Part shown: piece after piece, positions 1,985-36,477 of the stretch
How positions within the stretch are numbered: the first letter of the stretch is position 1
Layout of the letters: the number at the start of each line of letters is the position of its first letter
Source of the DNA: Amphiscolops sp. MND2022
Lineage: Eukaryota
Direction of reading: 5' to 3'
Assembly: GCA_964187785.1 (NCBI GenBank)
Contig: OZ076409.1
Coordinates: 69,070,001 to 69,134,000 of the forward strand
DNA: 64,000 nt
Position numbers and translations under genes: made by a program
Notes under the pieces: model-generated
Databases searched by the model: none
What the model saw: the letters and a program-made list of their open reading frames with translations, nothing else
Told to the model about the DNA's origin: nothing

Positions 1985-2090
1985 GAAGGGTTCAGCAACT
2001 CACAAGGGGTGAAGGGAAGGTATGGGAAAGAAGTAAGCAAAGAAAGAGGAAATAACAAAGACGCAAAGAAAGCCCACCCAGGAGCGCCAA

Positions 2091-2852: not shown

Positions 2853-4631
2853 TGTAATACGATAGACCAGCAGTCCACCCTACTCCTGGGTCGAAATCCG
2901 TACTATCGAAAAGCGGGGTAGCAACAATTCAGGCAACTTCAGGTTGTTAGGCTGAAGGCACGGGCTAAACGGCCAGACGAAGTAAATCTGCAATTTCGAT
3001 AGTCCGGTGTCTGATGCGGGATGCTATCGGACGCAAAGCAGCAAACCGTTCTCTAGATTTCAACTCACTTTGTGTCTCGCTAAAATGGCGCACACTTCGG
3101 CGAAAGTTACTTTTTCGGCAGTTTAGTCATATCATTATTCATAGTTTATCATCTTTCCTTTTTCGGGTTCTGACTAAGTGTTGAGCAATACAGTTTTTTC
3201 CTACTTCGGTACTGAAAGTTCATTAGAAGTACATTTTCTCAGCACGACTTAGTCCTAGTTCCGCCTTCTTGTCAATCATGACTAGTAGTTTTACTTCGTT
3301 TTCAATACGATTTAGGGGGAGGTGTTACTGACTCAATTTTTCCGACTTTTGTTAGCACGACTTGAACTTCGGCTTACTGATTGACATTTGCACTTTTTGC
3401 CAGGTCTCTTTTTCTCACGCGGTTCCTGACAACTCTCTTCAGCTAAAAATGGCTGAAGGAAACAATTTCCGACAATTTACAATGCCCTAAAAGGCGATTT
3501 TAATTCATATCTAAAAAAGTCGATTTTCGTGTTACAACTTCTAAGGACAAAAACTAGATATTCCGATCACGGGGGGCTAAAACCGACTACATCATTCAAA
3601 AGTACATTCAAAGGGCTACAAAAACGTTACAAATCATTATCTTTCTATTTCAACTCCTTCACGGTGAAAACGCCTTTGAAATAAAGTAGTCAAAAATCAC
3701 ATATTGACATTTGCAAATTTCTCAACTTTGGAGGGCTCGTACTCATTCAATTTGAAAGGTACAGCGTGGGGGCTTATATACATCGCTAGCCCAAGCCATT
3801 AGAAGTATTTTCCATTTTAGATGAGGTCTCTATCTTTTCTCAACAAAGTTTGATAGTACTTTTTCTGAAAGTAGTCATTTTCCCGATTTTTATGTCTGGA
3901 CTTTCAACTTTGGAGGCCAATATCTCAAAACCAGGTCATTTTTCGGAAAAACGCTCCCTCTAAACGCTGTGCGCCTGGGTCTTGTGCGTCTACCCTGAAA
4001 GTTGCAGCTCGATATCGCCCAAAACGTGCGGGGGGGGAGTTAGCATTTTGGTAGGTCGACATCCCTATCGGCAGAAAGAAATCACAATTTTATATTCTTG
4101 GGGGTTCTTCGCTAGCGCGCCGCAGCACTCTATTTATTATTCTATTCACTCCTCCACTTCAATTCTCAAGTACGCTGTGAAGGGGGCGGCTATTGTGCGC
4201 TTACTCGTTGAGTACTAAGCGATAACATGCGAAAATCGGCTTTTTAGGCCATTTTAGGGCTGTTTTTAACGTTTGATGGCTCAGTTCTCCAAAACTACTG
4301 AGTATTAATTATTTTCCAATTAACACAAGTTAGGGCATTCATTTATCTTTAATTTAGGCCATATTTGAACATTTTCTGACAACTGTAGCGATCACACGAA
4401 ATTTTTAAAGGAAACTCAATTTTGGAAAATCGTCAAAATTTTATATGCACTTATTTTCAAAGCTTCCCCCCGATATGTTCCCGTGGTCGCACAACGCTCA
4501 TATTCTAAACTTAGTCTTTCCTTTGGACGGGCTGTTGAATGCTGAAAACAGTTTGTTCCTTTCTCTCATCTTTGAGAAATCTGGTTTTGATTTTTAATTT
4601 CTATTAAGAGGGGGATTAATTCAAAGTGTGG

Positions 4632-5180
4632 TTCCTGTGGTTTCAAAATTTCAAGTAGTTCATCAAACCGTGGGGGATAAGAACCTGGTTCTTTTTCAAT
4701 ATATCTTTGGGGGACAGTTTCAAATTCTTCAATAGCCCACGATGTTAAACAAGTAGGCATTGCTGCGATTTTCTGACTATCATTCCACCCATTGGCTTTA
4801 GCAACTGCTTTGAAGTGTTTTACCCAATTTTCCCAGCGGTTGTAATCTTTGTTGGGGAACTTTTCTGGTTTTATTGGCGACTTTTCATATAAGGGTTTTT
4901 GTCTTTTCTTAGATTCATTTTCAAGAGCCAAGGAGTCGTCAGAATCTAGGTCTGCTTCAATTTTGAATCTTTTAATTTCTCTTTCCATTTCTTTCAATCG
5001 CCGATAAGAATCTCTTTTACACTCCTTTTCCGTTTGGGCCAATCCTACGAAGGAAAATTTAGTGGACTTACTGAGGAGTGGTTTACTACCACCTGTGACG
5101 GGAGTGTGGGTGCCGTTGGGATCTTCTTGGGTGACGGGGGAAATCTGCTGATCGTTGTGGTCGTCTCCAGACATCGTCAA
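4632..5180 (-). pseudogene. gag: Truncated duplicate of element A gag
   Basis: Near-identical to the N-terminal ~183 aa of 842..1984, then diverges at the duplication junction (KPQE|PHFE). Confidence 0.85.
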
Positions 5181-5286
5181 GAAGGGTTCAGCAACTCACA
5201 AGGGGTGAAGGGAAGGTATGGGAAAGAAGTAAGCAAAGAAAGAGGAAATAACAAAGACGCAAAGAAAGCCCACCCAGGAGCGCCAA

Positions 5287-6048
5287 TGTAAGATTTTTAA
5301 TTTTCCAGTAGCTTCAACTATTTGTTGAGGATAGCTCCACTACAACTCAATTAAACCCGTAGGTACCATGCACGAGACAAGGACTGGCTGAGTATCTACA
5401 TAAATTTTTATTAACTCCGAAGAAGAGACGAATCAACTTAATCGAAGGCGGTGGGGGTAAGTGTGACAAGGAAATCACGATCTTTACCACTTTGCTATTT
5501 TTCCCTCTTTCAGGGGTTTGTCTCGCTACTCTTGGACTGTTTGAAGTTATCTTTTCGCTGATGAAAAGAAGCAGGTTGAACTTTAATTACTATACATCAA
5601 ATAAATAAGTCGAGTAATAGACACAAATACAATTTCACATCCACGAATAATAGAATGAATAATTCGATAACATCGATAATAGCGGAGAATTATACTGAGT
5701 ATATTAGGAGGCATATTAGGAGGCATATAACACAAGAGAACAGTATACAAGAATTTCAGCAAGGTTAAGTTTTTTTGTATCCGTAAGGATGGGGGAGATA
5801 TCGAAGATATCGGAAGAATCAACTCGCCGCAAAATCTCTATCGGTCTTGGAGTGAAAAAAACAACAATCCGTGTATTATCAGCCCACTTAGGCTCAACCG
5901 TGTATTATCAGCCCACTTAGGCTCAACCGTGTATTATCAGCCCACTTAGGCTAAACCGTGTACTATCAGCCCACTTAGGCTCAACCGTGTATTGTCAGCC
6001 CACTTAGGCTTAAACCGTTTATTGTCAGCCCACTCAGGCTCTTTTACA
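5287..6048 (-). mobile_element. Second copy of the element A LTR
   Basis: Near-identical to 2091..2852 at offset 3196, with the same PBS. Confidence 0.75.
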
Positions 6049-9000
6049 TGTAATACGATAGACCAGCAGTCCACCCTACTCCCGGGTCGAAATCCGTACT
6101 ATCGAAAAGCGGGGTAGCAACAATTCAGGCAACTTCAGGTTGTTAGGCTGAAGGCACGGGCTAAACGGCCAGACGAAGTAAATCTGCAATTTCGATAGTC
6201 CGGTGTCTGATGCGGGATGCTATCGGACGCAAAGCAGCAAACCGTTCTCTAGATTTCAACTCACTTTGTGTCTCGCTAAAATGGCGCACACTTCGGCGAA
6301 AGTTACTTTTTCGGCAGTTTAGTCATATCATTATTCATAGTTTATCATCTTTCCTTTTTCGGGTTCTGACTAAGTGTTGAGCAATACAGTTTTTTCCTAC
6401 TTCGGTACTGAAAGTTCATTAGAAGTACATTTTCTCAGCACAACTTAGTCCTAGTTCCGCCTTCTTGTCAATCATGACTAGTAGTTTTACTTCGTTTTCA
6501 ATATGATTTAGGGGGAGGTGTTACTGACTCAATTTTTCCGACTTTTGTAAGCACGACTTGAACTTCGGCTTACTGATTGACATTTGCACTTTTTGCCAGG
6601 TCTCTTTTTCTCACGCGGTTCCTGACAACTCTCTTCAGCTAAAAATGGCTGAAGGAAACAATTTCCGACAATTTACAATGCCCTAAAAGGCGATTTTAAT
6701 TCATATCTAAAAAAGTCGATTTTCGTGTTACAACTTCTAAGGACAAAAACTAGATATTCCGATCACGGGGGGCTAAAACCGACTACATAATTTAAAAGTA
6801 CATTTGAAGGGCTACAAAAACGTTACCTATCATTATCTTTCTATTTCAACTCCTTTACGGTGAAAACGCCTTTGAAATAAAGTAGTCAAAAATCACATAT
6901 TGACATTTGCAAATTTCTCAACTTTGGAGGGCTCGTACTCATTCAATTTGAAAGGTACAGCGTGGGGGCTTATATACATCGCTAGCCCAAGCCATTGGAA
7001 GTATTTTCCATTTTAGATGAGGTCTCTATCTTTTCTCAACAAAGTTTGATAGTACTTTTTCTGAAAGTAGTCATTTTCCCGATTTTTATGTCTGGACTTT
7101 CAACTTTGGTGGCCAATATCTCAAAACCAGGTCATTTTTCGGAAAAACGCTCCCTCTAAACGCTGTGCGCCTGGGTCTTGTGCGTCTACCCTGAAAGTTG
7201 CAGCTCGATATCGCCCAAAACGTGCGGGGGGGGAGTTAGCATTTTGGTAGGTCGACATCCCTATCGGCAGAAAGAAATCACAATTTTATATTCTTGGGGG
7301 TTCTTCGCTAGGGCGCCGCAGCACTCTATTTATTATTCTATTCACTCCTCCACTTCAATTCTCAAGTACGCTGTGAAGGGGGCGGCTATTGTGCGCATAC
7401 TCGTTGAATACTAAGCGATAACATGCGAAAAACGGCTTTTTAGGCCATTTTAGGGCTGTTTTTAACGTTTGATGGCTCAGTTCTCCAAAACTACTGAGTA
7501 TTAATTATGTTCCAATTAACACAAGTTAGGGCATTCATTTATCTTTAATTTAGGCCATATTTGAACATTTTCTGACAACTGTAGTGATCACACGAAATTT
7601 TTAAAGGAAACTCAATTTTGGAAAATCGTCAAAATTTTATATGCACTTATTTTCAAAGCTTCCCCCCGATATGTTCCCGTGGTCGCACAACGCTCATATT
7701 TTCAACTTAAGTTCTCCTTTGGATGGGCTTTCGAATGCTGAAAACCGTTTGTTGATATCTTTTTCCATCTTCGAGAAATCGCGTTTTGATTTTTAGTTTG
7801 CATAAAGAGAGGGGATAATTCCAAAGTGTGCGGCGGCCGTTTTCTTATTAGCTATGTGTACAGCCACTCACAGCGCGTTCCAAATTTCATTCCTTTCGCT
7901 TTTTGACACGCTTAGCTAAGTTGCATTCTATGCTGTTCACGCACACGGCGGAGTTTTCACTCTCGCTTACCCTCAAACACATGTATTAACATAGTAATTT
8001 GACTAAATTTCTATTCACAGTATTTTATGACCTCTAATGCTTTTTCTGTGGAAATTCGTTACTGAAAAGTTCTTAAATGTTTACTCAACACGTAGTCAGG
8101 TCAGAAAGGAACATTTTGATGGTTTAATTTTTCTTATATTCGCAATAGGTATTGAGAAATTCAATGTTAAAGTTTCGTTCCGAATAGAATTTTGTTACAT
8201 AGGTCTGAGTGGTGGCGGCCGTCTCACTGCATTAGTACGTTGCGCGGTCGCTTCATAGCAGCTAAGAATGGTTCTTTTAGTAGTCCGCGAGACTAAAGAC
8301 AATATTATTGACATTGAACAATAGTGTGAGGTACTTGAGGTACTTATTGTAATCTTTACTTTTATACGATATCACCCCGTAAAATCTACCTTGCTGATGA
8401 ACTAAACTTTAATAAACACCAAATCATGAGCGAAAAGTCAAAAATCCTACACACTATAATAGTTGCGTTTTATTTCATAAAGCGCCGACTAAAATGAACT
8501 TAAATGCAATATACAGACTTTGAATTCATCTTCTCTATTTAAAGACTCATCGCTCCTACAGCTCTACATACCAGTTTAATAATTCAAAGATGTCAATGAA
8601 ATGATGGAACCGAATTGCCGTAGGGATAAATTTATCTCACTAATTGGATTGTTGTAATGAAATCCCGGTTTAATCAAAGCGCACAATCCATGATAACACG
8701 CAATGTATACATTGATTTTTTTTCTGAATTTCCCGAAGTTCTTCAAATTGCAGCTGAAAATTTTTATTGTTGTATCGACTAGGAAGTGTTTGTCTTAAAA
8801 ATCATTCTAATTTGTTCTAATAATTTCTGCAAGTAGTGTTAAAAAAATTCCAACTTCTGCAGTGTTAAAATGAGCAAAATTTGGTTGTACAAGTATGAAT
8901 TTTCCCATGTTCCTTTGATACCAAAGACGGAACAAGAAGACGTTGCAAAATACTGCATTTGTGAAAAATCTGAAAAAATTCCCAAAAAATATTACCAAGG

Positions 9001-11634: not shown

Positions 11635-12141
11635 ATGTCTCAGAGAGAAAAATACAGAAGTATATCTGTTGGCTACCACAACGACGCTTATTCAATAACA
11701 ACAAGTGTCAGTAAAGACGAAAGTGTACACGTCAGTCGAGTCGCGCCCCGAAGTTTTGCTGTTCGGATCATTATCCTCATCATCTGTTCGGCTTCCTTAT
11801 TCTTCGAGGGTCTCAATGCAAGCATTCACGCACCGTTTTTCCCGGAAAATGCCCGGGCCAAAGGAGCTTCCTATTGGGACATCGGGTTCATAACAGGAGT
11901 TGTGTTTGCTGCTTTGGCAGGAGGCTCTTTAATCGTTGGTGCACTCAATACCCCAGAGAGTACCAAATTTTTCTTTGTAATGGGCATGTTTTTATCAGGT
12001 GTTAACATGGTTCTGTTTGGGATACTTGGGTTCTCAAAAGGAGGTATGTTATATGTCTTCACCTGCTCTGTGTGTAGATTACTAATGGGCTTGGGCTGCG
12101 CCGCTGTTTATGCTTGTGCATTCCCAGTTATTGGAAATCAG
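11635..12141 (+). CDS. MFS transporter (SLC18B1-like), exon 1
   Basis: Hydrophobic TM helices with family-like motifs APFFP, IGFITG and RLLMGLG. The 3' boundary is inferred from spacing to exon 2 and implies a non-canonical donor. Confidence 0.85.
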
Positions 12142-12846
12142 GGATGATCATTATTACTTCTGAAAATTGGAGTCTCCCAAAAACTTTTTTAAAATATACA
12201 AGATACATACAATGTTTTAGAAGCTATTACTGTTATAATAAATATCCGGCTGGTGTGAATATGCTATCTGAAAACATCCGGAATTTATGCAAGAACCAGC
12301 TGATTCTCAGGAGTAACCTGTTAACAAGAGTGTTGATTCCCAATAAGAGGAAAGAACTAAAACTGTGAAAAATTTTAGACAGGAAGACTATTTTCGTGGT
12401 CATCTAGGAGTGACTGGGGTTTATCCTCACAGCAGAGTGGATGTTCTGCTCAATGCAGTAAAACTGATTCCAGTTGGCCAGAAAATGAAACAAATTACAA
12501 CTATTTCTACAAAACAACCACGTAGATTTAAAGTGTAAACCCACCGAGTGACCTGTTTTGTGAAAAAAGCGGAAGAGGCAAAGAATTGTCCGGTGTTTTG
12601 AAATCACTTTAAGTATTCACATATGCTAAGCTTCATGTGTCTGATCACTTGTTTCAAAACAAGCGCTGATTAGCATAATATGTCCACGAAGTTATCTAGT
12701 TCAATAATTTTTTATTTGGGGAGGAGAAAGTCACTGAGAGACCCGAAAATTGTGTCCTCAAAGAGGAGAAACAACAAAATGTTTTTTTTGGGAAAAAAGA
12801 TCCCTTGATTTCTTAACTGAAAGTTCACGCCCCTCAATCATCCCTG
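12139..12846. mobile_element. TIR element forming almost all of intron 1 (hAT-like CAGGG termini; introner-like)
   Basis: CAGGGATGAT (12139-12148) and ATCATCCCTG (12837-12846) form a perfect inverted repeat, followed by 8 nt and then the CAG acceptor. Confidence 0.6.
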
Positions 12847-12857
12847 ACATTGAGCAG

Positions 12858-13055
12858 TTTCCAAATATGGTAGGACGGACAACTTCTCTGCTACAAGTTT
12901 CAAGTGGAATTGGACTCATGTTCGGACCCTCCATAGGTTCACTGCTCTACATGTGGAAAGGGTATCTAGCCCCATTTTTAATGGCTGGCGTCATGGAGAC
13001 CCTACTGGGAGTTGCTTCCATTGTATTTTTGCCGCAACTGGGAGAAAAAACAGAG
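12858..13055 (+). CDS. MFS transporter exon 2
   Basis: cag|TTT acceptor. Encodes FPNMVG...GIGLMFGPSIGSLLY...GYLAPF (MFS motif C region). Phase-0 donor GAG|gtcagt. Confidence 0.85.
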
Positions 13056-16130: not shown

Positions 16131-18249
16131 TTCAATGAAATTTATTACATATAGTTTTGTTTGTTGGGACTGGTTTTTTATTTGCAACTCGACGATCTGC
16201 TTAGGTTTATGATTGTTTTCTTGTTGTTTTGGTTCTGTCGGTCTACTGGGATAGTGGCTGGCATGAGTAGTAGCAGTGCTTTGTGGTTTCTTTCGTTTCT
16301 TTTTGGTTGTAGACCACGGGTGTGTGCCATCTCCTCGCCTACATGACGACCTACAGGGCACTAGACTAATGACGACGATCTATGTTATCTGAGAGAGGTT
16401 TAAAACATGGACCAGTTTTCCGCGCAACTAGTTGTTCTTGACGAGCTGCACCCGGTGGGTTTATTTCTACAAAATTCCTGCCCACCAAAATTCACGTGAC
16501 CTACTTGAGAACACTCAAGGGGTTGCTTTAATTGTCAGGAAGCGAAACGTCCAATGACGTTGATGATCACTTCATACTTTCCAGAGTTTGTTATCCAGAG
16601 AAAATTCTGGATCAATTGTGAACATCAGAGCATCAAAGATATCATTAGATTGCGCGTGACTTCATTTTACGCACTACACCTTTTGATGTGTTTTTTTGAA
16701 AGGTGACGTAAGTGAAGCATGATTTACAAAAAAGGCAACATCAAATGCAACAGTTTGGTTACTATGAATCTGGCTGTTCGATTTTCAGTACTGGACTTAG
16801 TCGCGTTTCTCGAAAAATCAAAAGTGTAACTAAGAAATTCTGTATGAAGTTTTTCATTTGAATGTTTCCTAAATTTTTATGTTGTGGTCTTAATGCGTTT
16901 TTGGATTAAGTTTATTGGATGATGATCTTTATGTCATCAAATACTCGTCACTGATCAGGATTACCAGTACGTCAATTCGCAAACAACAGTGTGTCAATTC
17001 ACACAGAACAGTTGACTATGATTACGCAACATTCAATGAACTTCCAAACTCCATAAAACTGAAACATCACTGTCAAAGCAATTCTTTCTATCTTCGCACG
17101 AATTGATTTGCATTATTATCACCAAAATTTTTATCAAACAATATTAACATTATCGGCAGTTCAGGCGCTCTCCAATACTGTTCCCTATCAACTCTACACT
17201 GAAGTAAACAAAAAATGGAAATAATAGATGAAATTATCAAAAAATTTGTGAGAGCATCCAACGAGTTTTCATCCAAGGCAGTACAAAAAAGACCATGGAG
17301 CCTACAGGTATCACCGTAATTTCTAAAATGGTTAGATCGTTCCAAGCGTGCATATCAAAGAAGAACAAGGAAACTTAGTCATTGGAATCATTCTTTTAAA
17401 ACACTTGGTGAAAGATCAAAAACAATACCTTGCGATATAGGGATTCATTCGTATAGGGGGTCGACAACTGTTGAGATTATTGAGATCTTGAAACAATACC
17501 CTTAAAAAAAGATGAGAACTGTTGTACTGCAAGATGGTACAGTTATGATGCTTTCAGGTATTTGAATTGATTTAAAACATCATGGAAGCTGACTCAATCA
17601 AAAACACTAACATTTTTCCTTCTTGCTTCATTTCTTATAGTATCTGGGAGTTTTCAGTTTCGACAGTTGTCTGCTACCAAGTTTCACCTTATTGCTGTAT
17701 ATTATAATATAAATCGCTGAATATAAAATGACAAGAAAACAAAGAAAGAAAAGACTATTTAAGAACCTACGCCTGTGATAATCAACGCCTGTTTCTTCAA
17801 GTTTTTGACGCCTTTATAATAATTTGAAGTTTTTAACTGACAATTCAGAAACAAGAAGCAACTCAAATTCTTCCATGTAAACCGTCAAAGCATGATGCAC
17901 AAAAAACCTAGCTTGAATCCATTATTAGCGATCTTTGCGAAAACTGTATTTCTGGCTTCACCGAAACGTGACTCAAAAAATGTGACGATGATACGTTTTG
18001 GCAATTGAAAAAAGATCACTTCCAAAGTTTCCGAGCCGATATCAAACATACCAAAAACCGTAATCATAAGTTGAGAAAAGATTTAGTTCCTACTAATGCT
18101 CATGAGTTTGTGAGATTTTGGATAGAGTAAAATTTCAACGAAGATCAATCCAATAAGAAAAAACTGATAAAGCTGAGTTATATCCCAACAAAGCTCTTCT
18201 CAAAACGTTTCTAGAAGAACGTTTTCTATAATCATCAACAAGCATAGAT

Positions 18250-20160
18250 TTTGTTGTGACTGAAAATAAACCCATAACACAATTGAGAGACTACAACTTG
18301 GATAACCTAAATATCAAAGAACAACCAAGCTTAGACACAATTATTTTATCTTCTGGAATGAACATCACAAAAATAACGTACTTACAAAAATATCAGGCAA
18401 ATGCAAATTTCTTCTAGACTATTCAATTAAAAGTGTACCGAAATTTAAACGAACCAATATATCCTACACCCCACTCAGAACAATCCGGGAAAAAATGAGC
18501 GATCATCTTCCGACATCAAAAATTGAGGAAAAAAATAAAATGCATAAACCTCCAAACATTACACTCAGAGAAATTTTAGTTAAAACAGACTAGAGTCGAA
18601 GAACTGAGAAATTTGATCAGTTTTAGCAACTGGTGTTTGCTTCATAATCAAACTTGTGCTGAAGGACTGTTTACAGTTTTCACGGATATTCTAGAAAAAG
18701 CACTGCGGCGATGTGCGTTGAAAAAACATCTTTCATTAGAAACGATAAAAACATGCTAACAATGCAACAAAAATGGATAAAGGAGATACCAAAAAAATGT
18801 TCCGCAAAATTGAGTTTAGCGTAGAACCACAATCCTTAACTTACCAACAAATTCGAATTGACCTTTTTGGAAAAATTAACTCTAATCGTTTGGATTTTCC
18901 ACTTGAATTTTTCAATATTCTGAAAACTGAACGTGACAGATAGAATTTCATCAACGAGGCCAGGAACAGCAAACCATTGAAGTCAGAAACATTCAGTCTG
19001 AAAAACAGTTTCGGCGACACAGTCACTGACGCAAAAGGAAATCCAAACTTACTGAACTACCGGTTTTCAAATTACCGAGAGTACTTCGGGCAGGACAGAC
19101 AACATATGAACACTACTAAAAAATTTGAATATCTCGAAAGAAATACAGAACAAAACTGAAAGCTTCAGTTTTCAGCTCAAAAGCTGAATGCAAAAAAAAC
19201 ATTTGAAACGTTTAAAGAAGAACAAACCTTTTGCCCATCTGATATCCAAGCTTGGGCGCTGGAAGATTGTTTGAATTTAATAGCTTAACCGTTTTGCTTG
19301 ATGTGATAATGCCTTTATTGAGTAAGGTAAACTTCCAGGAAACCTAAAACAAGCCCATGTTAGACCGATCCATAAGAACGGTGACAATGAAGATCCTGAT
19401 GAGTACAGACCAATACCAATACCATCTTCCCTAGCAAAAGTTTTTGAACGAATCTAAGAGAACAAATGAACGAATACTTTGTAAGGAACAAGTTACTTGG
19501 CCCTTTACAAGTTGGGCCAATGAGCGAAACATTCAACAACGTATGCTTTACTATACGCTGCGGAAAATATGATAAAGGATTTAGATGACAATCGAAGAAC
19601 ATCGGCAGCATTTCCGGACGTTTCCAAAGCATTCAATTTGATATTTCATGAAATCCTATTACGGAAAATGCATAATCTCAATTTCAATGGAAAGGCCATG
19701 AAAATGATAAAGAGTATTTTGACTGAGAGATACCAAATGATTAAACTTTCCACATGTAACTAAGATTGGATTCAACATTAGAGTGCACAGAGTGTATGAC
19801 CATTCAACATACATAAACTCCTTCCTTTTCGATTTTTTTTACATTACAAATGCCTTTCATACCTTTGGAAATATAAAAGTACTCTAATTCCAGCTTTCAA
19901 TAGAAAACTACACTTACCGACTGCTAAGACAAAGATACATGAAAGAACACAAATTCAATACTCTTATGACAATAAGGTCTGAATTTCTACGCAAAGGTTT
20001 CTTCAATAGAACATTTCCCTTGTGGAAGACGCTACCGAGAAAAATAATAAAGGAAAAAGTTTCATACGAAATCATGAAAGAAAGAATCAAATCTTTCCTT
20101 TTCAAAAAATACGAATATGAAATAGACTGACCTCGATATGGAATAAAATGTTTAAGTGTT
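18250..20160 (+). mobile_element. Decayed CR1/L2/Jockey-group LINE (RT remnants) in intron 2
   Basis: Fragments PIHKNGDNEDPDEYRPIPIPSSLAKVFERI (~19365-19455), DVSKAFNLIFHEILLRKM (~19617) and C-terminal FFNRTFPLWKTLP. Many stops and frameshifts. Confidence 0.7.
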
Positions 20161-20363: not shown

Positions 20364-20607
20364 GAAGTCGACCCCTTGATCGATTCAGAAAGGGTCAACT
20401 CTTTGCAAGACGAGCAGAAAAAGGTGACGTTTCTTGAGTTCCTCAAGTGCGTCGATCTGTGGAAGGTGACCCTCCCCTGTCTCGCCTTGGCGTCCACTAT
20501 GGGTTTCAGGGATGCGGCTTTTACAAACATCATGGTAGAGCAGCTGGGCGAGAAGAGCCCAGCAGTTCTCGGACTCATGTATACACTCAGCTCTCTTGCA
20601 TATACAG
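20364..20607 (+). CDS. MFS transporter exon 3
   Basis: ttgtttcacag| acceptor in phase with exon 2. Encodes the central loop and TM7-8 (...LGLMYTLSSLAYT). Donor is either non-canonical GA at 20608 or GT at 20614. Confidence 0.8.
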
Positions 20608-20997
20608 GAATGAGTGATTCAATCACAAATTTGTATATAAATTTGAAATTATCAGCAATGCTTTTTTCGGAGGAGCATGAACAACTTTTTTAAAGGCATA
20701 AAGAAAACGATAATATTCTGAAAGTTGTTGTTCTCAGTCCTCTACTCTACGATTTTTTGCCTCGAAAAAGATTATTAACATTTTTTTTGTTTTTCAGCAT
20801 TCAGTTCAGAATCATATTTTTGAGGTATTGTGAATAAATATTATTTTTGAATTCTAAAATAGTTGATATTTTGTTGCCTCGTAAACGGTGATGACAGTTT
20901 TTGGGTTAAGCATTCAGTAAAGAATTACAGCCCAAACATCGAAGGTTTTTCGACAAAACCATAAATATGTCGAATAATATTTTTTCAATCATTACTG
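20605..20997. mobile_element. TIR remnant forming intron 3, same family as the intron 1 element
   Basis: CAGGAATGAGTGA / TCAATCATTACTG is an 11/13 inverted match. The right end is 11/13 identical to TCAATCATCCCTG in intron 1. Followed by 7 nt and then the CAG acceptor. Confidence 0.5.
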
Positions 20998-21007
20998 GAT
21001 TTGACAG

Positions 21008-21346
21008 TCTCGGCAATGTTAACGGGAATTTTCGTTGACAAAGGTTTCGCCGGTCATGTTTTAACTCTGGGTCTGTTCATAGTGCCTACAGTGCCAACTA
21101 TGTTGTATTTGACGAAATATTTTGAAGTTCCCGTTGCAATATATTGCGCAATTCCGTTCATGGGAGTGGGTGCAACTTACGGGACCTTCTGTGCACCTTC
21201 TATGCTGTTACTGGAGAAGGCTACCATCACCAGATTCGTCCACGAACACGACGAGATGTTTCTGGCCCAGATCAGGTTGATGGTCAGTGCGTGGTATAGT
21301 GTCACCAGGGCACTGGGAAGATGTGTAGGCAGCTTCATTTTCGGAG
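21008..21346 (+). CDS. MFS transporter exon 4
   Basis: ttgacag| acceptor. Encodes SAMLTGIFVDKG...VSAWYSVTRALGRCVGSFIFG. Phase-1 donor G|gtcagc. Confidence 0.85.
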
Positions 21347-24300
21347 GTCAGCAAAATTTACAACAGAAATCTTTTTTTTTAACAGTCAAATATAGATCCA
21401 TGGTAGACTTGGGAAAAACCATCGCGTAAAAATACGTCTCATTATTTTACTCAAAGCAGATAAACATAATAGAGCTCTGAAACAAACACGTATATCAAGT
21501 AAACATCATAATATGTATAAGAAGACTATCGCATACATACAAACACCATACTCCTCCCTTGTTAAGTTTGCTTCCATCTGAGTTTTCATCGGAATCGGAT
21601 TGGCCTTCGAATAGTTCTATTAGACCGTCTTGGTGATCCGGTACAGTATCATGGGTGTCGCCGGGCACCACTGCTGAGGTTGGTTCTGGATGGTCGGAAT
21701 TCTTACCCGGAGTGCTTGCGTCATCAGTACTGGTGCTTGATGATAAACCATCGGCAAGACCATTGGGCTCATCAATAACTGCAGGCGTGCTAGTAATTTG
21801 ATCATCAATAACTGACGAAGACGGTGAAGATTTCGTAGGCTTGATTTGATCAAGATGACGTGTAATCGACCTCTCAGAGTCTGGATTGTAAATATTAATG
21901 ATGAAGGTGATTTTCCATTGTGTACCGCTGCTTGTCGATATTGCAGAAGGAAACTGCTATCTAAATCACCTTTTCCTTCCGTCATTTTCAAATGCATTTT
22001 GAAATTTCCAACAAAACAGTTTACTAACCCATTACTTTTAGGGTGCGCAACAGGGGAATTCCATAACTCGAATCCTCGGTTCAGGAAGTACTGTCGAAGC
22101 TCTTCAGATCGGAAAGCAGGACCATTATCTGATACAAGACATTTTGGCAGTCCTACCAAACCAAACAGTTCTTCAAGTTTTTTTAGTGTTTCGGATGTTG
22201 TTTCCGACTGGGTGCGAAAAACAAACGGAAAAATAGAGTAGGAATCAACTACGAGCAAAATATAATTTACTTCAACAGGACCAGCATAATCGATATGAAC
22301 CCGTTCAAATGGTTTAGAGTTAGATTTCCAGCCGATCTCTTGCCCAGTTATAGCAGCTTTCTTAGTTTTCTAGCATTGAACGCAATTTTTGCAGGTGGAC
22401 TCAGTATCATCATCGATGTTTGGCCACCAATAACGAGAACCAGCAAGTGACTTCGTCTTTACGACTCCTAGATGAGACGAGTGTAAGTTTTCGAGAACAG
22501 CGTCTCGAAGTGGTTTCGGAACAACCACGCGAGCATTCCTATACAGCAAATTCTCATGGAACGTTAATTCGTTCTGCACTCTGTGATACGGTCGTAACAC
22601 CCTTGAGATGTTCTTTAGTACTTCTGGCCATCCGAATTGGACATAGTACTTCAGCAGTGCAAATTGCTTTGATTATCAAAGTAACTAAGTATCTCCTTCC
22701 GAAGATTGTCATCCGGTTCTAAGAGTTATCCTTTGCACCAATGTCGAAAGTTGTTTCATCAGTGTTAACGTTTACGCGGGACAATAAATCAGCTACTGGA
22801 ATTTCATCTGTTCTTTTCCCCACAAGTTTAAATTTATAGTTCGATAAGAAAACAGACCTGCGGGTTACGCGTTGATTAGCGTGAGCAGACTTACATCCGT
22901 TCTGTTTCAGAAAACATTCAAGAGGCTTATGATCACTTACTGAACGGAATTTGCGACCGTAAACATACTTGTGTAGTCGCTTAACAGCACAGACGATTGC
23001 CAGTGCTTCTCGATCTAACTGCGAAAAGTTTTCTCAGCTTTTGACAGAGTTTTACTAATAAATAAAACGGGTTGGCCAGCTCGGCTTAGCACGGCACCCA
23101 CTGCAACGGATGATGCATCGCAGGATATTTCTACATGTTGATCTGGATCAAATGCTTTCAACACCTTATTACAAAGGTCATCCTTCAGTTTCGCGGATGC
23201 CTAAGTATGAACGTTTTTCCAATGGAATACGTCAGCTTTCATTAAATCTCGCAATGGTTGAGGAACAAGGTCGGAAAATCGTGAAACGAATTTTGAATAG
23301 AAGCCAACACCACACACAAATTTCATTAGCTGCATAGCATTCACAGGTTTCGGAATATTTCGAAAACGTGTCACCTTGCGGCAATCAGGCGAAATTTCAT
23401 TTGCGCGACTTTTATAGCCAAGATGATATAGTTCAGTTTTGTTATTCAAAGACTTTTTTCATTGATGGGTAACCCAGCTTCTTGCAGTCGTTTCTTTACT
23501 TCTGCTAATATTGCATCATTCTGCTCCTTTGTCTTGTCAGCGACCAATATATCATCCAGATGGCAGAAGACTGTCTATAAGCTATGGAGTAGTTTACGAA
23601 TCTTTGTCTGAAAGATTTGAGTCTTTAACTTTACTCCAAACGGCAGAAATTTATACTTGTCCAACCCAAATGGTGTAGAAATTACAGTAAGAAGTTGGGA
23701 TGAGTCATCTAGGCACTTGTAAGTAAGCGTCTTTAACATCTAGTTTTGAGAAAAATTGGTTTCCCGCCAGCTTTGCGAGGGTATCTTCTACATTAGGACC
23801 TTGTGTGACTGATGATGCAATAAACGGATTTACTGTAATTGGTGTAACGCAGTCGTTACTTACTAGAGGTTCAATAATTCCTGCGCCTTGTAACTGCTTC
23901 AATTACATTAGCACAGGGCCTTCCAAAGCATATGGTAATTTACGCGGTTCCATAAAAAATAGGCTTTGCATCAGGACGAAAATGACGAAAATCAATTGAA
24001 GATACAGCTTTCTCAGCAACGCGAATGGCATTTACATTCAATGTCACCAGTCCCAACTTTGAAACTGCTTCCATTCCAAGGATCGGCTCACTCTCTCCGT
24101 GATTCTATAAGTAACTTCAGCTTTCTTACTTTCAGCAGAATGTTGAGCATCGACAAGCTTCCGCTTTATTTCTATTTCGCCCCTGAGTAAGAGTAAAGCG
24201 TTCCATTCGAATCAATACATTTTACCTTGAGGTCAGGAAAACGTTCGATTAAGCTTGGCGGAATTACAGGTGCAGCGCCTGTATCAAGCATGGGCTTTTA

Positions 24301-24730: not shown

Positions 24731-25154
24731 TAGGGCAACCGCGATTTGCCCTTTATTTTTTAAAATTTTGCCCTTTATTTGCCGCCCTTTATTTTGAAAT
24801 TTGCCCCTTATTTGCCCTTTATCGGCAGGCGTTTGAAAGCGAGGATTTAACAAAAAAGTCAAATTCGTTCGTTAAGTGAAATGTTACAATAAATGCAAAT
24901 GTAATTCTTGATATTTGTAACATCAAAATTACGGTCCTTGGCTAGCATCTTGAGTTGCTAAATGGTTATTTCTGAGAAACTCCTGTACACAAACTCGCAC
25001 GGCTCGTATTTCTCAGAAAAGGGGTGAATATATACGAAAAAGTACAAGATTCGATGTATTTTGCCTTTTTTGCCTTTTATTAAACTTTTTGCCCCTAACC
25101 CGTATTTCTGCCCTTTTTGCCCCTATTGCCCTTTTGCCCTTTTTGGTTGCCCTA
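24731..25154. mobile_element. hAT-type MITE (424 bp) inserted in gag of element B
   Basis: TIR TAGGGCAACC/GGTTGCCCTA, exact 8-bp TSD CTAATGAC (24723-24730, 25155-25162), and subterminal TTGCCCTTT repeats. Removal rejoins DKEKVI|RKLLLLEQ. Confidence 0.92.
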
Positions 25155-28448: not shown

Positions 28449-28533
28449 GTCTTTTGCTAGATCTTTGTGGCACATACAACACTTTGCTAGCTTTCGCAAT
28501 CTACCTCGTAGTGACGTCATTCTTATCAACTTT
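28449..28533 (+). CDS. MFS transporter exon 5, 5' part (interrupted by LTR element C)
   Basis: Polypyrimidine ttttttttcag| acceptor, phase 1 matching exon 4. Encodes GLLLDLCGTYNTLLAFAIYLVVTSFLSTF (last TM helix). Confidence 0.85.
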
Positions 28534-30459
28534 TGTCATGAACGTTATGGTTAGATATTCCACCTTTTTGGCGTACATCATGTCGTTCATTCCTACAGTT
28601 AGTCCTAGCGTTCGAGTTGCGCTGTTCTTCGGCATCCGTTTCCGGTCTCTCAGCCGGGACTTCCCATCCTCTTCTAGTCCCATGGACCGATCCGGCCATC
28701 ATGGCATTTTGAATTTGAGGCAACACTTGACTATTTATAGCCTCATTGATGGCCCTTTGGATCTGTGAACTAACATTATTAAGCATATCGTCCATTTCTC
28801 TCGAGATCCTAGAATTTAATTCGCTTGACAACCTGTTTATCTCTGCAAGTGAGTTTGCTTCAGCTGAGTTTTGGCCCAAGTCGGCACTTGTCCTGGGTTC
28901 ATTGTTCCTACAATTAGAATATAGGCTTTCGTCCTCATTCTCTTGATTGTCGCTTGCAACACTATTCCTCCTCCTAGCTGAATTACTATCTAAACTCCTT
29001 TCTCTTTCAATCCCGTTAAAGTGATTGTTTCCTAGCATTATATCTAGGTTTTCAATATCCGAAAGGATCTCTAATCCTCTAGACTTTCTAGTCTTCTTCT
29101 GCTTTCTCGTTGTAGGCATTGAGACTAAACCGGGTTGAAGAATTAAATTAATCAGGTCCGGAAAACAGTAATTGTTAACAGATTGTTATCAAGTTGATTG
29201 TGAGGAGCTTTTCGAAAATTGTGTCTACTCAAAGGAAGTAGCTCCTATATATACTCCCTTGGGTGGGAAAAGCATGGTAGTAACTTTAAAAAATGTCATA
29301 ACTACATTCCTAAAGCACCTGATCAGATCATATACATTCAAACATCAAAGTGCCGCTGAATTGTAGTAGCAAGGTCACGCGGCCGTTTAAATTCCTGCTT
29401 TGATGGGATTGAGAGGCATTCAAATAGCACGCGTTACTTCAAACAACATCTACTATAATATTTGCACTGCTGGTATTTGGGGAATGTCAGCTATCCCGTG
29501 CCGGCACGTGCCCCAGTAGTAAGCTAAACAAACTTACATCAAATAACGTTACATGCATAATACATCTACAAATTGCATGTGTTAATTGACAAATGAGACC
29601 GGACTGGTCTTTCGGGCAAGTATTTGAAGCACCAACACACAACTGGTGTTAATCATATCAACCGATCTGGGGGACTACATAACTGTTTGCAACACACTCA
29701 TTACTGTACATGTCATTTAGAATGCACAAAACAATCATATTGACCATCTGAGTAATAAATTGAATGGGTGGCCTAAATCGGCCATTATCCGGATAGGTAT
29801 AGCATCAGGGGAGGGAAATTAGGCAAATGGCCTTATTCGGCTAAGCATCAGGGGAAATGAAACAAAACACTAATTATCCAACGTGATCATTTAACAAACA
29901 CAGAAACGTAATTAAGCTACTTATTAATACAGTATAGCAGCGTCCACATCATTATCTTTTCATTAGCAACTTATGGCCGAAACCGGCCGTTTGACTCAAG
30001 TCCCGTTTAACAAAGGCGGAATTCAGTCATGTGGCCTTAACTGGCCATTAATTAAATACAGCACAAGTATTGTTCAAATGGATGAATGTGATTGGTTAGC
30101 ACGACTGCAGTAAGTTATATCGCCGAGAAGGGACGTTTTCGCACTTGAACACGTTTCCTTCTCGCGATTAACTTGCTCTCTTATTGTTTGCTATAGCATC
30201 AATACAACTTCGCAATTTAATTCAGCTATTACAACAACGAACTGATTTGGCTAATCCCAAATCGTAATATTAACAGACTAATTTGAACATCCAATATAAG
30301 TGATCAAATAAAATAAATACAAACAAAATACATGATGTAAACGGTTTCTAAAGTTTTAGCAGTTTTATTCTTAAAAAGTTGGCAGTGTTCCGGGTATGAC
30401 TTCTTGGTTGTTGCTTGTTGTTGTAATCATAGTGCCGTCACAGGCGGCAGCCTGCGACA
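28534..30459 (-). repeat. 3' LTR of element C (1926 bp)
   Basis: Matches 43029..44954. No differences seen in the segments compared by eye. Confidence 0.95.
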
Positions 30460-31156: not shown

Positions 31157-32232
31157 AATGAGTTTTTTAGCTATTTTGAAGCTTGGGGAGGCAACTAGTC
31201 AGAATCAAAGTTTGAGAAAGAATGAATTCAACAAATTTGAGAATTTAGCCGACTCGGGCCTTTTCCCGACAATTCGTTTTTGGCGGTTGAATCTTCGGTA
31301 AATTACCCTAATCCGACATAAACATTCCTGAATGGAATTTCATAATTAGTCGGCCACCTTTGATATACCGATGTTTACCCGTCATCAACACCATCAGCTT
31401 AAGAGGTGTGAACGACGCTTGAGCTGCTAGCCTCAATTCTCTCCATCTCAAGTGGGTAATTAACGGGTCGCTTGAAGGCTATTAACGACACGCGCCGTTA
31501 AATTCTTTCAACATGGCTTCAGCCAATCAGAGTTAAGCTCTGATAAAATGAAAAATTAAATAATAAAATGGCGAAAATAATAAATCAAAATAATTCAAAA
31601 TGGCGGAAATAACAATTTGAGTAACTATAATAACGGAAGTCCTAATTAGGCTAACAAACAAAACGGAACGAGGTAATACAATGAAATGGGGTAAACGGCC
31701 GTAATTGGCCAATAGTTCCATGAGTTGTAAATAATGAAATAATCTTAGTACATTTCGCTGGCAGACTCCATGTACAGAATAAATATGTAAATAATCCCAT
31801 AATATTAGTCTGGTAATAATCTTCAGCCACGAACTCCAATCCTTCAATTCTTTATTTTGAATTCCAATTCAATTCCTTTTATTTTAATTGCACTTTCTCT
31901 TCCATATTCATTTGATCGGTCTCCATCTACGAACTACCCTTTCTGTCTCTAATCTCTCCCGTTAGTCATCTCTTCCGAGTATCCCTGTTTCTCCCTTTAA
32001 GCCGGGTCCGGCCAATTTCCTTCGCGGCAGCAACCCGATTGGAACACTTCCCTTTTAGACTCAGCTCAGAATGTCTTCAACTGAAGGTTGGTTTGTTTCT
32101 TTTTGAACTCAAATTTAACTTGATCAGGGCTAAATTCGTTCACAAAATGCTTCCTGTTTTCATCAATAAACGTGTGATAGCACGTTTCGTTCAAATTTTC
32201 AAACACTTCCGGAAGTTTTCTAATGCGGTAAA

Positions 32233-34299
32233 ATGGATTTTTTCCAAGGAAGCTCACCGCCAAATTTCATCTCATTCTGTTTAGAAAACCAGAATAATGA
32301 CGAATCACAGATTCGAAACACCACTTCTTCAAACAATCTTGCCGAGGTTCCTCAACGCCCGCTCCCGATTACCATGCCAAGGCCTAGATCCGATCTAATT
32401 GCTCCGTCTTCTCTATCTTCATCCAACATCCTTGCTATGCCAACAGCAGCGGTAACAGGAGGAGCCCAAGATACAGCCACTCCCTCTCCTTTCAGTGTCG
32501 ACAGTGATTTTGATGTCACGGCGTACGCTGATGAGAAAGTTTTGCTTCTCGAACGGGCCCAGGAACAGGAAGAGAGACAAATTGCCAAGAGTTCTGAACT
32601 CGGGGAACAGGAGGTTGAAGAGAGTGTCCCAGAGGGTTCACTTACGGTTGGGAACGAAATCCGATCTTCTACCTTGCCCTTCCAAACAAGCACTCCAACC
32701 AAGGATTTGCCCAGTGAGTCTGCAAGGCTGAATTTATCGCAACTAGAAGCCGGTCTCACAGTTGCTCCATCTACCCAGACGGAATTGCCAGAATTGTTGA
32801 CAACTCGCGGAAATACTACCAACATGTCAGCAGCATCATTCCTCCACCATGAGACTGACGAAAGTTCGTCTATATGTGATGCCCCCAAATTGCCGACTGG
32901 AGTCGCGGACATAGTATATTTAGACGACATAACAGGGACTGAGGAAGCTGGTGACACATCCAGTCAGGCAAGTGGACCAGCTCTATACAGTTTCCAACCA
33001 GTGGGAGGCGCAGCAGAAACTGCAGGGGAGTCATCCGTTGACACTCCTATTCCTCATCCGGATAACTTGCGTCCGTCAACATCAACGTCTGCAGAGCAAG
33101 GTTCTGGCATCAGGGAGCTCTCTGGTCGCAGCCGGGCTATTTTAAAACAATACTTCGATCAGGATGCTACTACCATCAACTTCCCCCTCGGCCATAGAAC
33201 GGTGGCTTTCACTGAGCCACAAGTGTACCATCTTTTGAGGGTCCTTACAGATGAAACCTTGAAGATGTCTTTCACTGCCATGGAACAGATGGTGATCGGG
33301 GCAGTTCGTGGAGCGCCGGTTACTTCCAGTTCTCGAACTGGTCATTTCCGAAACAGGCCAAGAGCCCAAACTCCCGGACCTGGACTTCATAGTGATTCCG
33401 AGGGCAGTTCGCATTCTGAAAATTTCCCTGAGTCAGGAACTGATACGTCTGCCGGGTCAAGTTCGGAACAAGAAGATAGAGGACTGGACTCTTCCAACAA
33501 CACTGATAGCTCTGGGGAGATGGCTCTAATTTCACAGGCTTTTAAGGAGCCTTTCAGACCTGCTTCAACTTCCTGTGGGACTACTCAAGATGATCCCCCT
33601 CAAGCAGGTTTCGAATCAGCAGATCAGTCTAGTCTTGATGCTACCCTTTCCGAGTTACGAACTCAAACTTCTCCTGCTCCGCCCTTAGCTTCAAGTTCGG
33701 GTAAAGTGCCAAAACGTAAGCAACGGAAACAGACTCGAGGTATCCCTATGAAAGAGGAGTTCTTCTCTAAAATCGGATGGACGCGCTCGTTCATTTCTGG
33801 ACCAGCAGACCCGCTCCATAATCCTTATATGGTATGGTGCCATATATGCAAAAAGAATCTTTCTGTGAAGACGAAGGGCACTTTGGAAATTCTGCGGCAC
33901 CACAGGACGGAGAAGCACCTCCGAAAAGATCAAAGATGGCGTTACGAGCACCTCAAGAGTGTTCACCCCGTGTCCGGAAAGGTGCAACATCGAGTGAGAG
34001 GCCGCAATGGGAAGATTCTCTCAGAGATTGAGTTGGCCAAGGAGATGCGCCACTTTATGCACGTTGAGTTGGTGGACATCGGAGAACGTTTCCCTTTCTA
34101 TGACGATTTCATAAAAGGAACAACCACCACACTCGTCACCCCTGAATCAAGAGCTAAGACACAGATCCAACTTATTGGGAACTTCATACAGCAGCACGGG
34201 GATATTGGAATGCTCCGCAAATTGTGGTCCCAAATAGGCTCTTTGACTAACTATCAGTCCAGCTACTGTGACTTCGATTGGGGTGAAGAAAGAATTTCG
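32233..34299 (+). CDS. Antisense accessory gene of element C, exon 1 (S/T/E-rich disordered region, basic NLS-like patch, BED-like zinc finger)
   Basis: Long ORF with KRKQRKQ and WCHIC-x15-HH-x4-H. Donor TCG|gtaagt at 34300. Start codon uncertain (32233 or a downstream ATG). Confidence 0.8.
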
Positions 34300-34382
34300 G
34301 TAAGTTCTCTATTGGGTTTGTACACTGCTTGTGGTAGGCCAAAACCTTCCAAACATTTCGTAATTCTCCTTTTCCTTTTCAG

Positions 34383-34868
34383 GCCATCTTCCAGCACATC
34401 TTCAATTGTGCAATGAACGATTTAGCAAACCAGATTGCTACCACACAGCACTTTGCCATTGAATTTGAGGATCAGGGTGTGAACAGACTCATGTCTGTCA
34501 AATTCTGGAAAGACAACACCCTCTGCCGAGTCTACGTGTGTCGAAGTGGGCTTCCTTCCTCTGACCTTACTGGAGAGTTGGGGTCCCTCTCTCGACTCCT
34601 CTCAGTAGTATCCACTAAAGCCGATATAGTCGCCTGTTCCGGATGTCCTGTCGAGCTGATTCAGACTATCGACAACAATGTTTTCTTCCCCCGGGCTGTC
34701 CAGAGTTGCTTTCGCTTCGAGCATCTGCAGCTCCAGAAGATGATGCACAAGCCCACTTTCAGTGTGTTTGGCAGAATAGACTTCTTCTCTGTTCTGAAGT
34801 GTCTCGTAGTTTCACTTGGAGCAGCTTCCAGTGAAGATTGGGCCCTGCAATCCCCTGAACTAGCACGA
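34383..34868 (+). CDS. Antisense accessory gene, exon 2 (degenerate hAT-like RNase H core)
   Basis: cttttccttttcag| acceptor, phase 0. Encodes AIFQHIFNCAMNDL...FAIEFED...CSGCP...CFRFEHLQL. Donor CGA|gttagt. Confidence 0.75.
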
Positions 34869-34947
34869 GTTAGTATATTAAGTTCAAACATGAAGCGTAA
34901 AGGGTTAGGGGGTAGGTTCGGACAAAAGACAATTCGGGTTCGTTTAG

Positions 34948-35164
34948 GCTATCGATACCTGCAAACTGGACTTGCCGAGTTTACCCAACCTCTGTCGGGA
35001 ACTTGTAAAACATTGGAAGGCGATCCGGCAGTACCTGACGTCCCATACTCCACACCAGGGAATGCAGGGGGTCCACAATCAAGTGCAGAGCTTCGAGTGG
35101 TCTCTCATCTGCGACTCCTTCTTCACCGTCAAGTTGGAGTTCTTCCAACGCATAATCAGTGATT
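34948..35164 (+). CDS. Antisense accessory gene, exon 3
   Basis: tttag| acceptor, phase 0, in the frame of ORF 34972. Encodes ELVKHWKAIRQYL. Donor T|gtgagt (phase 1). Confidence 0.75.
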
Positions 35165-35320
35165 GTGAGTATACCGCTACATATCCATATTGGTACTATA
35201 AGACATTATCAGAATGATCCTTGATCCTTGATTCCTCGGGCCACTAGCGCAGTAGGCATATCGGTATGGGTTTATGTAGACGTTTTGTTCTTTTCATGGT
35301 CTTGTCCTTTGTATTTCCAG

Positions 35321-36477
35321 ATGTCGCCAGTTTCGTTGTCAATCTGTTGGGCCGACGAGATGCAACATTTTTCCTCTGTGGAGAAGTCTGCCGATTCATC
35401 TCCAAGTTATGTGCCAGATGTTACTTGCCGGAAACCATCCCTCTCGAGAATTCGTGGTTCCTTCTCCTCAACTTCAACGTGAGCGACGGGAAGTTCATCA
35501 GCGAGGAGGAGTTCCTTGTCCGACACCGGTTGACAAATCGGATAGCTACTGCCAGCAAACAGTGTGCCGATGTTGTCCATTTGAACAAGAAATCGGAGAA
35601 AGCCGCCATTGAGAAGACAGCTGCAGAGACAACCAGCAGTTTCGTCAAAGAAGGACTGCAGTTTATTCAGTACTTGGTCAAGCAGGTCCTCAACCAAGCC
35701 GGTCTGAGCTCCGAGGTGATCAAGGGGTTGGCCGCCTTTGATCCTTTCGTCCTCTTCAAGAGGCCGAGTGAGGTCGGACTTCGTCATTTCGAGGTATTGT
35801 ACTCGACCTTCCAGCTTCGCTCCTGGGTCTCCGGTGAGAATGAGAACATCTGTCGAGATGAGTATTTGGCTTTGTTAGATCACCTGCGAGTCAATTATCC
35901 TCCAGATTTCGATTTCAATGGAAATTCCCCCGACCTGATAGACTTTCTGATGCAACTCGAGTTTTTTCAAACTCATGAGCACATTTTCCATCTTTTCAAG
36001 CTGTGCTGCTTGTGTTTGACAGAACGAAGTCTCCAATATCCCCCAGTATCTTTCGGGAGTGTTAACACTTCTGGACACCGAGGCCGTTTTGCTGACCTTA
36101 TAGAGCCCTGTCAGAGTTACCTTTCTTGCGTGCCTGACTCCATTCTACATTGTTGTTCTGACGCTAATTTAGAAAAGCTTTCAGCCCTCAGTTCTTCCTT
36201 CGAGCGTTCCGCTTTCTCCCCCGACTATGATCCATGGACCTTTGTGGATGAGTTCGGGAGGTCCAAAATTTACAAGAGCCTTCTTGCCTCCTATAAGGTC
36301 GTCACTGCTGTTTCTCCCCCTCGGGCTGTTCATCTGGCGACAGGAATTGCCTCCTCCGTGCCGGACGATTCTGCCGTAAAGGTGCCCTCCAAGAAGCAAA
36401 GGAAGCGAGCAGGTAGCAGCAGTTCTACAATTTCGTCCACTTCCAAGAAGGCTGTTCAAGGGTCCTCTAAAGACTAA
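35321..36477 (+). CDS. Antisense accessory gene, exon 4
   Basis: Long pyrimidine tract gtatttccag| acceptor, phase 1, in the frame of ORF 35266. Ends with a basic/Ser tail and TAA. Spliced total is 3927 nt = 1308 aa. Confidence 0.8.

Follow-up and report, generated by a model that had tools for sequence, protein, structure and literature searches.

A probable hAT-derived intron with a likely GA donor in an SLC18B1-like transporter gene of Amphiscolops sp. MND2022

The window analyzed here is a stretch of 64,000 nucleotides of the Amphiscolops sp. MND2022 assembly (GCA_964187785.1, contig OZ076409.1, positions 69,070,001 to 69,134,000, forward strand), and coordinates given without a locus or contig name refer to it. 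On its forward strand lies a gene encoding an SLC18B1-like major-facilitator transporter, the five exons of which (11635..12141, 12858..13055, 20364..20607, 21008..21346, and 28449..28768) join into an open frame of 535 amino acids. Exon 1 matches positions 3-111 and exon 2 positions 118-174 of the MFS_1 profile; exon 3 used alone as a query retrieved none of 61 candidate homologues at E<=0.001. Among the ten best matches, the closest ones with a name come from the acoel Convolutriloba macropyga; they are SLC18B1-like and 32-35% identical. Introns 2 and 4 have GT donors, intron 1 begins with GG, and intron 3, the subject of this analysis, with GA.

Upstream of the gene is a ~3.2-kb tandem duplication (about 1450-4600 and 4640-7800) that includes a short 32-bp repeat array. 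Within intron 2, a degenerate stretch at ~17850-20130 resembles a LINE reverse transcriptase remnant. Intron 4 holds a retrotransposon remnant with an integrase match at 21623-22369, as well as a young 424-bp hAT-type element with a perfect 8-bp duplication (24731-25154) that was copied, to 26592, in a ~1.44-kb tandem duplication of the remnant. LTR-retrotransposon pol frames of 1,735 and 1,771 aa are found at 36710-43680 (-) and 55451-60766 (+); the frames at 32224-36477 (+) gave no Pfam match.

Intron 3 (20608..21007, +, GA...AG, 400 nt, phase 1) had its boundaries placed by homology. The first three bases of its left arm (20605..20617, +), a putative hAT-type terminal repeat, are exonic, and the GA donor falls within the arm. 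The right arm (20985..20997, +) is complementary to the left at 11 of 13 positions and contains a branch-like TCAT word, with an A near -17 or nearby. It is followed by a 10-nt spacer (20998..21007, +) ending in the acceptor AG, in which the expected second copy of the target site agrees with 20597-20604 at one of eight positions. The ends are thus as first described, with CAG at 20605-20607, GAATGAGTGA from 20608, TCAATCATTACTG at 20985-20997, 7 nt, and CAG at 21005-21007. Intron 1 (12142..12857, +, GG...AG, 716 nt, phase 0) is built in a similar way, with a left arm at 12139..12151 (+) and a right arm at 12834..12846 (+), the first 10 nt of which are complementary at all ten positions; its acceptor ends 11 nt past the right arm, a distance that is frame-neutral for an 8-bp duplication. 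Both introns have an AG|G(A/G)A donor (CAG|GAA in intron 3 and CAG|GGA in intron 1) and an ordinary AG acceptor. Minor (U12) introns carry the long fixed 5' consensus RTATCCTT, and we rejected this class for intron 3 as its sequence lacks it.

The original prediction assigned the two introns one terminal-inverted-repeat architecture and a common origin in a wave of transposon-driven gain. The architecture proved similar but not identical, as the spacer before CAG is one base longer in intron 1 (8 nt) than in intron 3 (7 nt). The right ends do agree at 11 of 13 positions, and this exceeds chance, a match of 11/13 occurring in only 102 of 18,145 pairwise comparisons among the ends of GT introns. 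A single wave of one element found no support, given the unrelated bodies of the two introns (18 and 20 of 200 shuffles score equally well), the single copy of intron 3, the rarity of the class (~2% of dynein introns, see below), and the performance of the shared 3' pattern as a family marker, which gave three matches against two in the control, the third match (L024) having no evident exon after it. A young family with the exact 13-mer end was likewise rejected (34 matches against 12 in the control, with no facing pairs). The end common to introns 1 and 3 would mostly be a generic hAT terminus.

hAT transposase domains are abundant in this genome, with 150 scored out of 2,215 candidates. In the 1.92 Mb examined, we found 47 young elements with YAG ends and perfect 8-bp target duplications, many of them 380-490 bp long. 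Position 5 of their ends is G in 89 of 94 cases, whereas positions 4 and 6 are frequently not the same on the left and the right. At three loci (L209, L212, and L217), TAG(G/A)GATG ends with a duplication of 8/8 lie around a hAT dimerisation match, and the arms of the introns carry the same YAG.G..TG core as the ends of such transposase-bearing elements. The arms of intron 3 are likely hAT (Ac/Ds-type) ends, judging from these terminal sequences. The proposal that the introns derive from transposons was supported, as their arms match the hAT ends of the genome, genes with no relation to one another show this architecture, and the introns are missing from many paralogues. Two motifs were discarded as search tools. 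One derived from L026 gave 392 matches against 235 in the control, with a partner arm in none of the 30 loci read, and many of its matches belong to one repeat that resembles retrotransposon pol. The other, TCATCCCTG-N7-13-CAG, gave 425 matches against 523 in the control; in a sample made up of 30 loci plus 60 longer stretches (19 of the latter overlapping the former), only L273 and L286 looked like host introns (open frames, no Pfam support) and one case (L241) fell in a transposase-like frame, the remainder being chance or unassigned. In this last case, at L241 7416-8719, a 617-nt hAT-ended insert splits a long transposase-like frame (no Pfam match) and is possibly an intron in another element; the distance from its right end to the acceptor, hereafter k, is 11.

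A search of the genome for intron 3 returned one match only and no second copy elsewhere, and its body matched no hAT family in 1.9 Mb. Near-identical introns at unrelated sites, the mark of an introner family, were not found for it, it has no 8-bp target-site duplication, and its k of 10 is one base off frame. Intron 3 would behave much as an introner does, but we kept it out of the introner family because the multi-copy test failed and no duplication is kept, and consider it probably an old hAT-derived intron, as far as its sequence can tell. Its site is spanned by relatives without this intron, namely the paralogue L026, in a gapless alignment, and five single-frame paralogues.

SLC18B1-like genes are strongly expanded in this genome, with 98 matches to one relative used as the query and clusters on C7, C3, and C2. 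Many of the matches are single frames of 440-510 codons and others have introns at scattered sites; the expansion is good material for dating intron gains. We tabulated 23 junctions of this family, which are the best G..AG calls, chosen by us with weak ones left out; 14 have GT, five GG, two GA, and two GC donors. None of the 22 junctions other than that of intron 3 maps to its position. In all, hAT arms were seen on about a dozen introns, a few of which still show a faded 8-bp duplication. One duplicated pair is formed by the L318 intron (573-927, TAG|GG, arms 12/13, k=11) and that of its duplicate L342 (480-890, TAG|GA), each with a duplication of 6/8. Their right arms are identical, as are the 35 nt that end there, compared with 234 of 297 positions in the body (longest other run 20) and 141 of 150 in the exons. 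In L304 and L312, plain GT-AG introns owe both splice sites to duplication of the target (7/8) and have the first base of the hAT end at +3, and in L314 the target supplied the G of the donor and the element the C. The L316 intron (1570-2263) interrupts an AGY serine codon, split by the junction, where the intronless copy L315 has a TCN serine. Introns in L305 (1034-1301, GG), L306 (964-1389, GG, and 299-492, GA), and L308 (977-1265, GC) have inverted arms that begin at +1 and flanks with a ~7-8-base repeat ending in CAG; they probably represent a second transposon family making introns, on the evidence of these ends.

A trace of the target duplication could still be read in this material. In seven of the 12 tabulated armed introns, k is 11 or 14, and within this set the match between exonic and intronic flanks peaks at 8 bp (25/56, permutation p=0.024); a later k=11/14 set gave 29/56 compared with 2.04/8 in GT controls. 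Four of the 12 do not fit the frame (intron 3, L316, and two dynein introns), and the L026 intron is a fifth misfit, fitting only with a GC donor four bases upstream. The arms of the 12 introns are retained at 84 of 96 core and 43 of 60 outer positions (349/376 and 188/235 in young elements), values inflated by the fact that several of the 12 were chosen by their arms, while the duplication has faded to 37/96.

The reading that we favor, and hold to be probably correct, is that intron 3 is the worn remnant of a small non-autonomous hAT element that would have inserted in an exon and been removed since by the major spliceosome from GA to a host AG. The genome is rich in hAT-type elements that end in YAG.G..TG and are flanked by 8-bp target duplications. 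Insertion of one would leave its first three bases in the exon and create a donor YAG|G(G/A/C)ATG, and the acceptor would be an AG of the host sequence at a distance of 10-16 nt beyond the right end. The number of bases added to the message would be 3 + 8 - k, so that the frame would be preserved with k equal to 11 or 14; intron 3, with k=10, would require a later loss of 1 nt in the spacer or a 7-bp duplication. As the L318/L342 pair shows, the +2 base can differ (GG or GA) with the right arm constant. The body would decay with both arms retained, and the right arm probably supplies the branch point as well as a short pyrimidine tract and possibly pairs with the donor. A further proposal, which we offer tentatively and think rather less than even, is that in this animal lineage a hAT terminus is a ready-made intron kit, by which many hAT families would repeatedly convert exonic insertions into introns with GG, GA, or GC donors, and that the paired repeats would be held by selection, since pairing would bring a weak donor to the acceptor and be required for splicing. 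If true, this would be a structure-assisted route for the animal major spliceosome, and drift from GG through GA or GC to GT would hide the origin of many ordinary introns.

To see whether the arms exceed chance, we turned to 15 regions with dynein heavy-chain genes (800 kb), located their introns with the help of 70 homologous proteins and the paralogues, and scored arms when at least 10 of 13 positions were complementary at an offset of 3-30 nt from the acceptor. Across all 228 junctions, 207 were GT and none of these had arms. At identity of at least 0.5 there were 205 junctions (191 GT, seven GC, four GA, and three GG); three of the seven GA/GG calls are doubtful, with no AG exon end and weak margins, or a 47-kb span. 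Arms were present in three of these seven, that is, three of the four with an AG exon end (C11 1707664-1708291 and C11 6170901-6171212, both GG, and C11 6165237-6167176, GA), as well as on one GC intron and one low-confidence GG intron. The genes that carry them are conserved, with junction identities of 0.84-0.97. More than 90% of introns are GT-AG, and the armed non-GT class is real, amounting to ~2% of introns in the dynein sample (3-4 of 205 junctions). The notion that GT dynein introns are hidden hAT relics was rejected, with 2/191 flagged (3/205 junctions overall) against 10/1017 in the control, hence no excess.

For three of the four armed dynein introns, a paralogue that is 44-61% identical has a GT intron at exactly the same place and in the same phase; for these three, the relatives do not lack an intron at the site. 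Intronless CAG sites share a position with an intron of a paralogue in 125 of 1,197 cases (10.4%) and CAG|GT introns in 27 of 55, and the sharing seen departs from the new-gain expectation (p=0.004). Either CAG sites gain introns repeatedly, a case in point being position 179 of the host family with at least two different element types, or hAT ends sometimes replace an old intron. The second option, applied to intron 3, would make it an older intron near whose 3' end a hAT element landed, a deletion then fusing the left end of the element to the exon and replacing the GT donor. The host family provides comparable cases, as the L318/L342 introns share position 148 with the GT intron of L336, and position 179 holds an intron in five paralogues with different ends. 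Replacement needs neither a duplication nor a fixed k and would suit intron 3, where k is 10 and the flank match 1/8. We nonetheless find it unlikely, as the intron-3 position is empty in every paralogue examined, including L026, the 8-bp signal is retained in the k=11/14 set, a change from GT to GG brings no clear advantage, and repeated gain at one CAG|G site would explain the shared positions as well.

A second alternative concerns the donor. An in-frame GT at 20614..20615 (+) could be the true splice site, or both sites could be used to give proteins differing by two residues, leaving GA incidental. This GT is canonical, and in a pairwise test limited to three references the sites nearly tied (31.7 for GT and 31.3 for GA); the GA donors of vertebrate FGFR genes, in the available text of PMC7072748, need a GT six bases away, upstream in that case. 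Larger comparisons favored GA. Against a profile of 80 full-length homologues, the GA junction scored 286.4 bits and the GT at 20614 278.7 bits, the GA junction being the top score among all in-frame G..AG pairs for intron 3 (for intron 1, the same profile gave 286.4 bits for GG and 271.8 for the nearest GT). In pairwise alignments, GA was better for 66 of 70 homologues and GT for three, with one tie, although the rows are related and do not make 70 independent tests; 85 homologues had been tried and 15 dropped at a score <25. The GA site stands at the 67th percentile of a donor profile built from 191 GT introns with +1/+2 ignored, and the GT site, at the 1st percentile, is very weak. As originally claimed, the GA junction joins without a gap to the homologues and the GT adds two residues; this insertion was seen in none of the 25 homologue rows printed and would fall inside a predicted membrane helix. 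In the other armed introns, an in-frame GT or GC is not nearby or scores 12-36 units worse. The right arm independently reads A at the place equivalent to +2, which speaks against a base-call error. Splicing of intron 3 likely starts at the GA within the element's own end, going by these alignments, and a role for the GT at 20614 seems improbable.

That the intron ends reflect chance or convergence on splice signals, with no transposon involved, is very improbable and largely refuted already. CAG|GRATG is near a strong donor anyway, pairing between the two ends of intron 3 in the RNA is of unremarkable, modest stability (-10.5 kcal/mol, with 17 of 191 GT introns equally low), and a confident CAG|GA dynein donor (G000:C11:6178378-6178764, -) has no clear right arm, a 6-base repeat being common to both of its junctions. 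Splice signals, however, give no reason to expect a reverse-complement copy close to the acceptor, found in none of the 207 GT introns, and convergence predicts neither the 8-bp duplication peak nor the complementarity at arm positions 9-13 (43/60 compared with 247/955 in GT controls). A dead or mis-assembled host gene whose insertions are never spliced would accommodate two non-canonical donors within one gene, but can be dismissed almost entirely as the reading frame runs unbroken through all five exons for 535 codons, the inserted bodies are too degenerate to be recognized, and the same architecture occurs in the conserved dynein genes.

Returning to intron 3 as a hAT remnant spliced from GA, a hAT terminus read as a donor YAG|G(G/A/C)ATG fits the donor profile of this genome at all positions but +2, and the UG at donor +4/+5 serves U6 pairing. 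Read in reverse, the terminus provides a short pyrimidine run and the word TCAT, the A of which lies ~17-23 nt before the acceptor, and the acceptors of armed introns are without the usual T-rich tract (T 0.32 compared with 0.54). A base other than G is found at +2 in the left arms of five of 12 introns, against five of 94 young ends (p=0.0015), and in one of 12 right arms. These counts suggest that +2 drifts, or is selected, away from GG after insertion; the GA of intron 3 may be original, both of its arms reading A there. The retention of arms next to a faded duplication points to selection on the right arm, a signal inflated by arm-picked cases. The +2 changes are not compensated on the opposite arm, and a stem of paired arms might possibly be needed for splicing.

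Several parts of this picture have precedents, which we compare here with the available portions of each source. Introners derived from TIR transposons, including families classed as hAT, are described in plants, fungi, and the tunicate Styela clava (Gozashti 2022, PMC9860276; Gozashti 2025, PMC12130899). The introns studied here resemble them in exonic insertion with one splice site carried and the other taken from target or flank, in 8-bp duplications, and in occasional codon loss or gain (PMC9860276, PMC12130899). Those introners are young and multi-copy, whereas the bodies here are unrelated and many hAT families apparently contributed (PMC9860276, PMC12130899); the donor here also lies three bases inside the terminal repeat, unlike in the available text of PMC12130899. 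In the hAT rows of that source, donors are mostly GT or GC with few GA and none listed as GG, non-canonical ones being pooled as NC, and four acoel genus names and "Xenacoelomorpha" gave no match in the 12 of its 14 supplementary files that were searched. The end type and 8-bp duplication are also those of maize Ac/Ds, with ends C/TAGGGATGAAA, of which Ds1 measures ~400 bp (PMC3260210).

In this survey, L304 and L312, with their 7/8 duplication, display an AG|GT geometry like that reported for maize Ds, and the introns differ from maize Ac/Ds in that they are decayed, are fixed in conserved animal genes, and draw donors other than GT from the terminus. Ds is reported to be removable by splicing and to be able to give rise to an intron when an AG|GT site is duplicated, in work attributed to Wessler and to Giroux in 1994.

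GA and GG donors are known from the copepod Eurytemora affinis and GA-AG introns from the tunicate Oikopleura dioica (PMC5714493; PMC7072748). Shared with these are an AG that always precedes the donor, an A at +3, the restriction of the introns to a lineage, and an unchanged main U1; such introns make up 12% there and ~2% here, and no origin is given in the available text (PMC5714493, PMC7072748). The same hAT origin was not supported for the Eurytemora donors, as the core TG at +4/+5 occurs in one of the 36 listed (PMC5714493 File S1) and in 11 of 12 here. Dinoflagellate introner-like elements (bioRxiv 10.1101/2020.10.14.339549), as far as the accessible text goes, are similar in that one element class serves several frames and GA donors of new introns drift; they are massive and young with a donor mostly from the target, while here the donor would come from the element with GG as the starting state. 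Terminal repeats at intron ends are also reported for the MITE introns of Fritillaria borealis (PMC11282704) and for euglenid nonconventional introns, which are closed by a CAG/CTG stem (bioRxiv 10.1101/2025.08.15.670264). From what is available of both sources, Fritillaria has >90% non-GT/AG introns, the reverse of the >90% GT-AG found here, and the euglenid introns lack G..AG ends, whereas +1 G and an AG acceptor are kept here.

hAT introners and animal GA/GG donors are thus known separately; what is new here is a donor inside a hAT end, GG as a start state, the contribution of many families, the GG/GA duplicate pair, and the apparent retention of the right end. We found no report of hAT-derived or GA/GG-donor introns in acoels in the mainly open-access literature searched. 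Well-documented intron birth is rare in animals, and animal GA/GG donors have been without a known origin. The present cases would give a countable mechanism, a donor within a hAT end combined with the 3 + 8 - k frame rule, with fossil stages side by side, from young elements through an intron that keeps 6/8 of its duplication to the GG/GA duplicate pair, the last suited to testing how the spliceosome accepts a non-U at +2. Old cases of this kind would escape searches that require multi-copy intron families, and gene predictors that demand GT or GC would mis-model such genes.

The original prediction had also invoked a spliceosome tolerant of GA/GG donors and pointed to 5' variants of U1. Reading frames support the use of such donors; a change of snRNA sequence as the cause found no backing. 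Among the 20 U1 copies read of 23 matches, none fits GA or GG and all keep the AC that pairs with GU, and the ACAGAGA box of U6 was intact in all 15 read of 19 matches. The U1 genes themselves (L002-L021, on C3, C7, C8, C12, and C13) are diversified, with six different 5' ends in 20 copies. Copies L008 and L015 read ATATTTAAACCTG, and in copies L014, L020, and L021 the sequence is ATACTAACCTG, predicted to pair with the most frequent donor here, GTTAGT (16/191). One of the U1 genes, L007 (G000:C12:22482914-22483074), is flanked on both sides by matches to exons of a dynein heavy-chain gene and is probably intronic.
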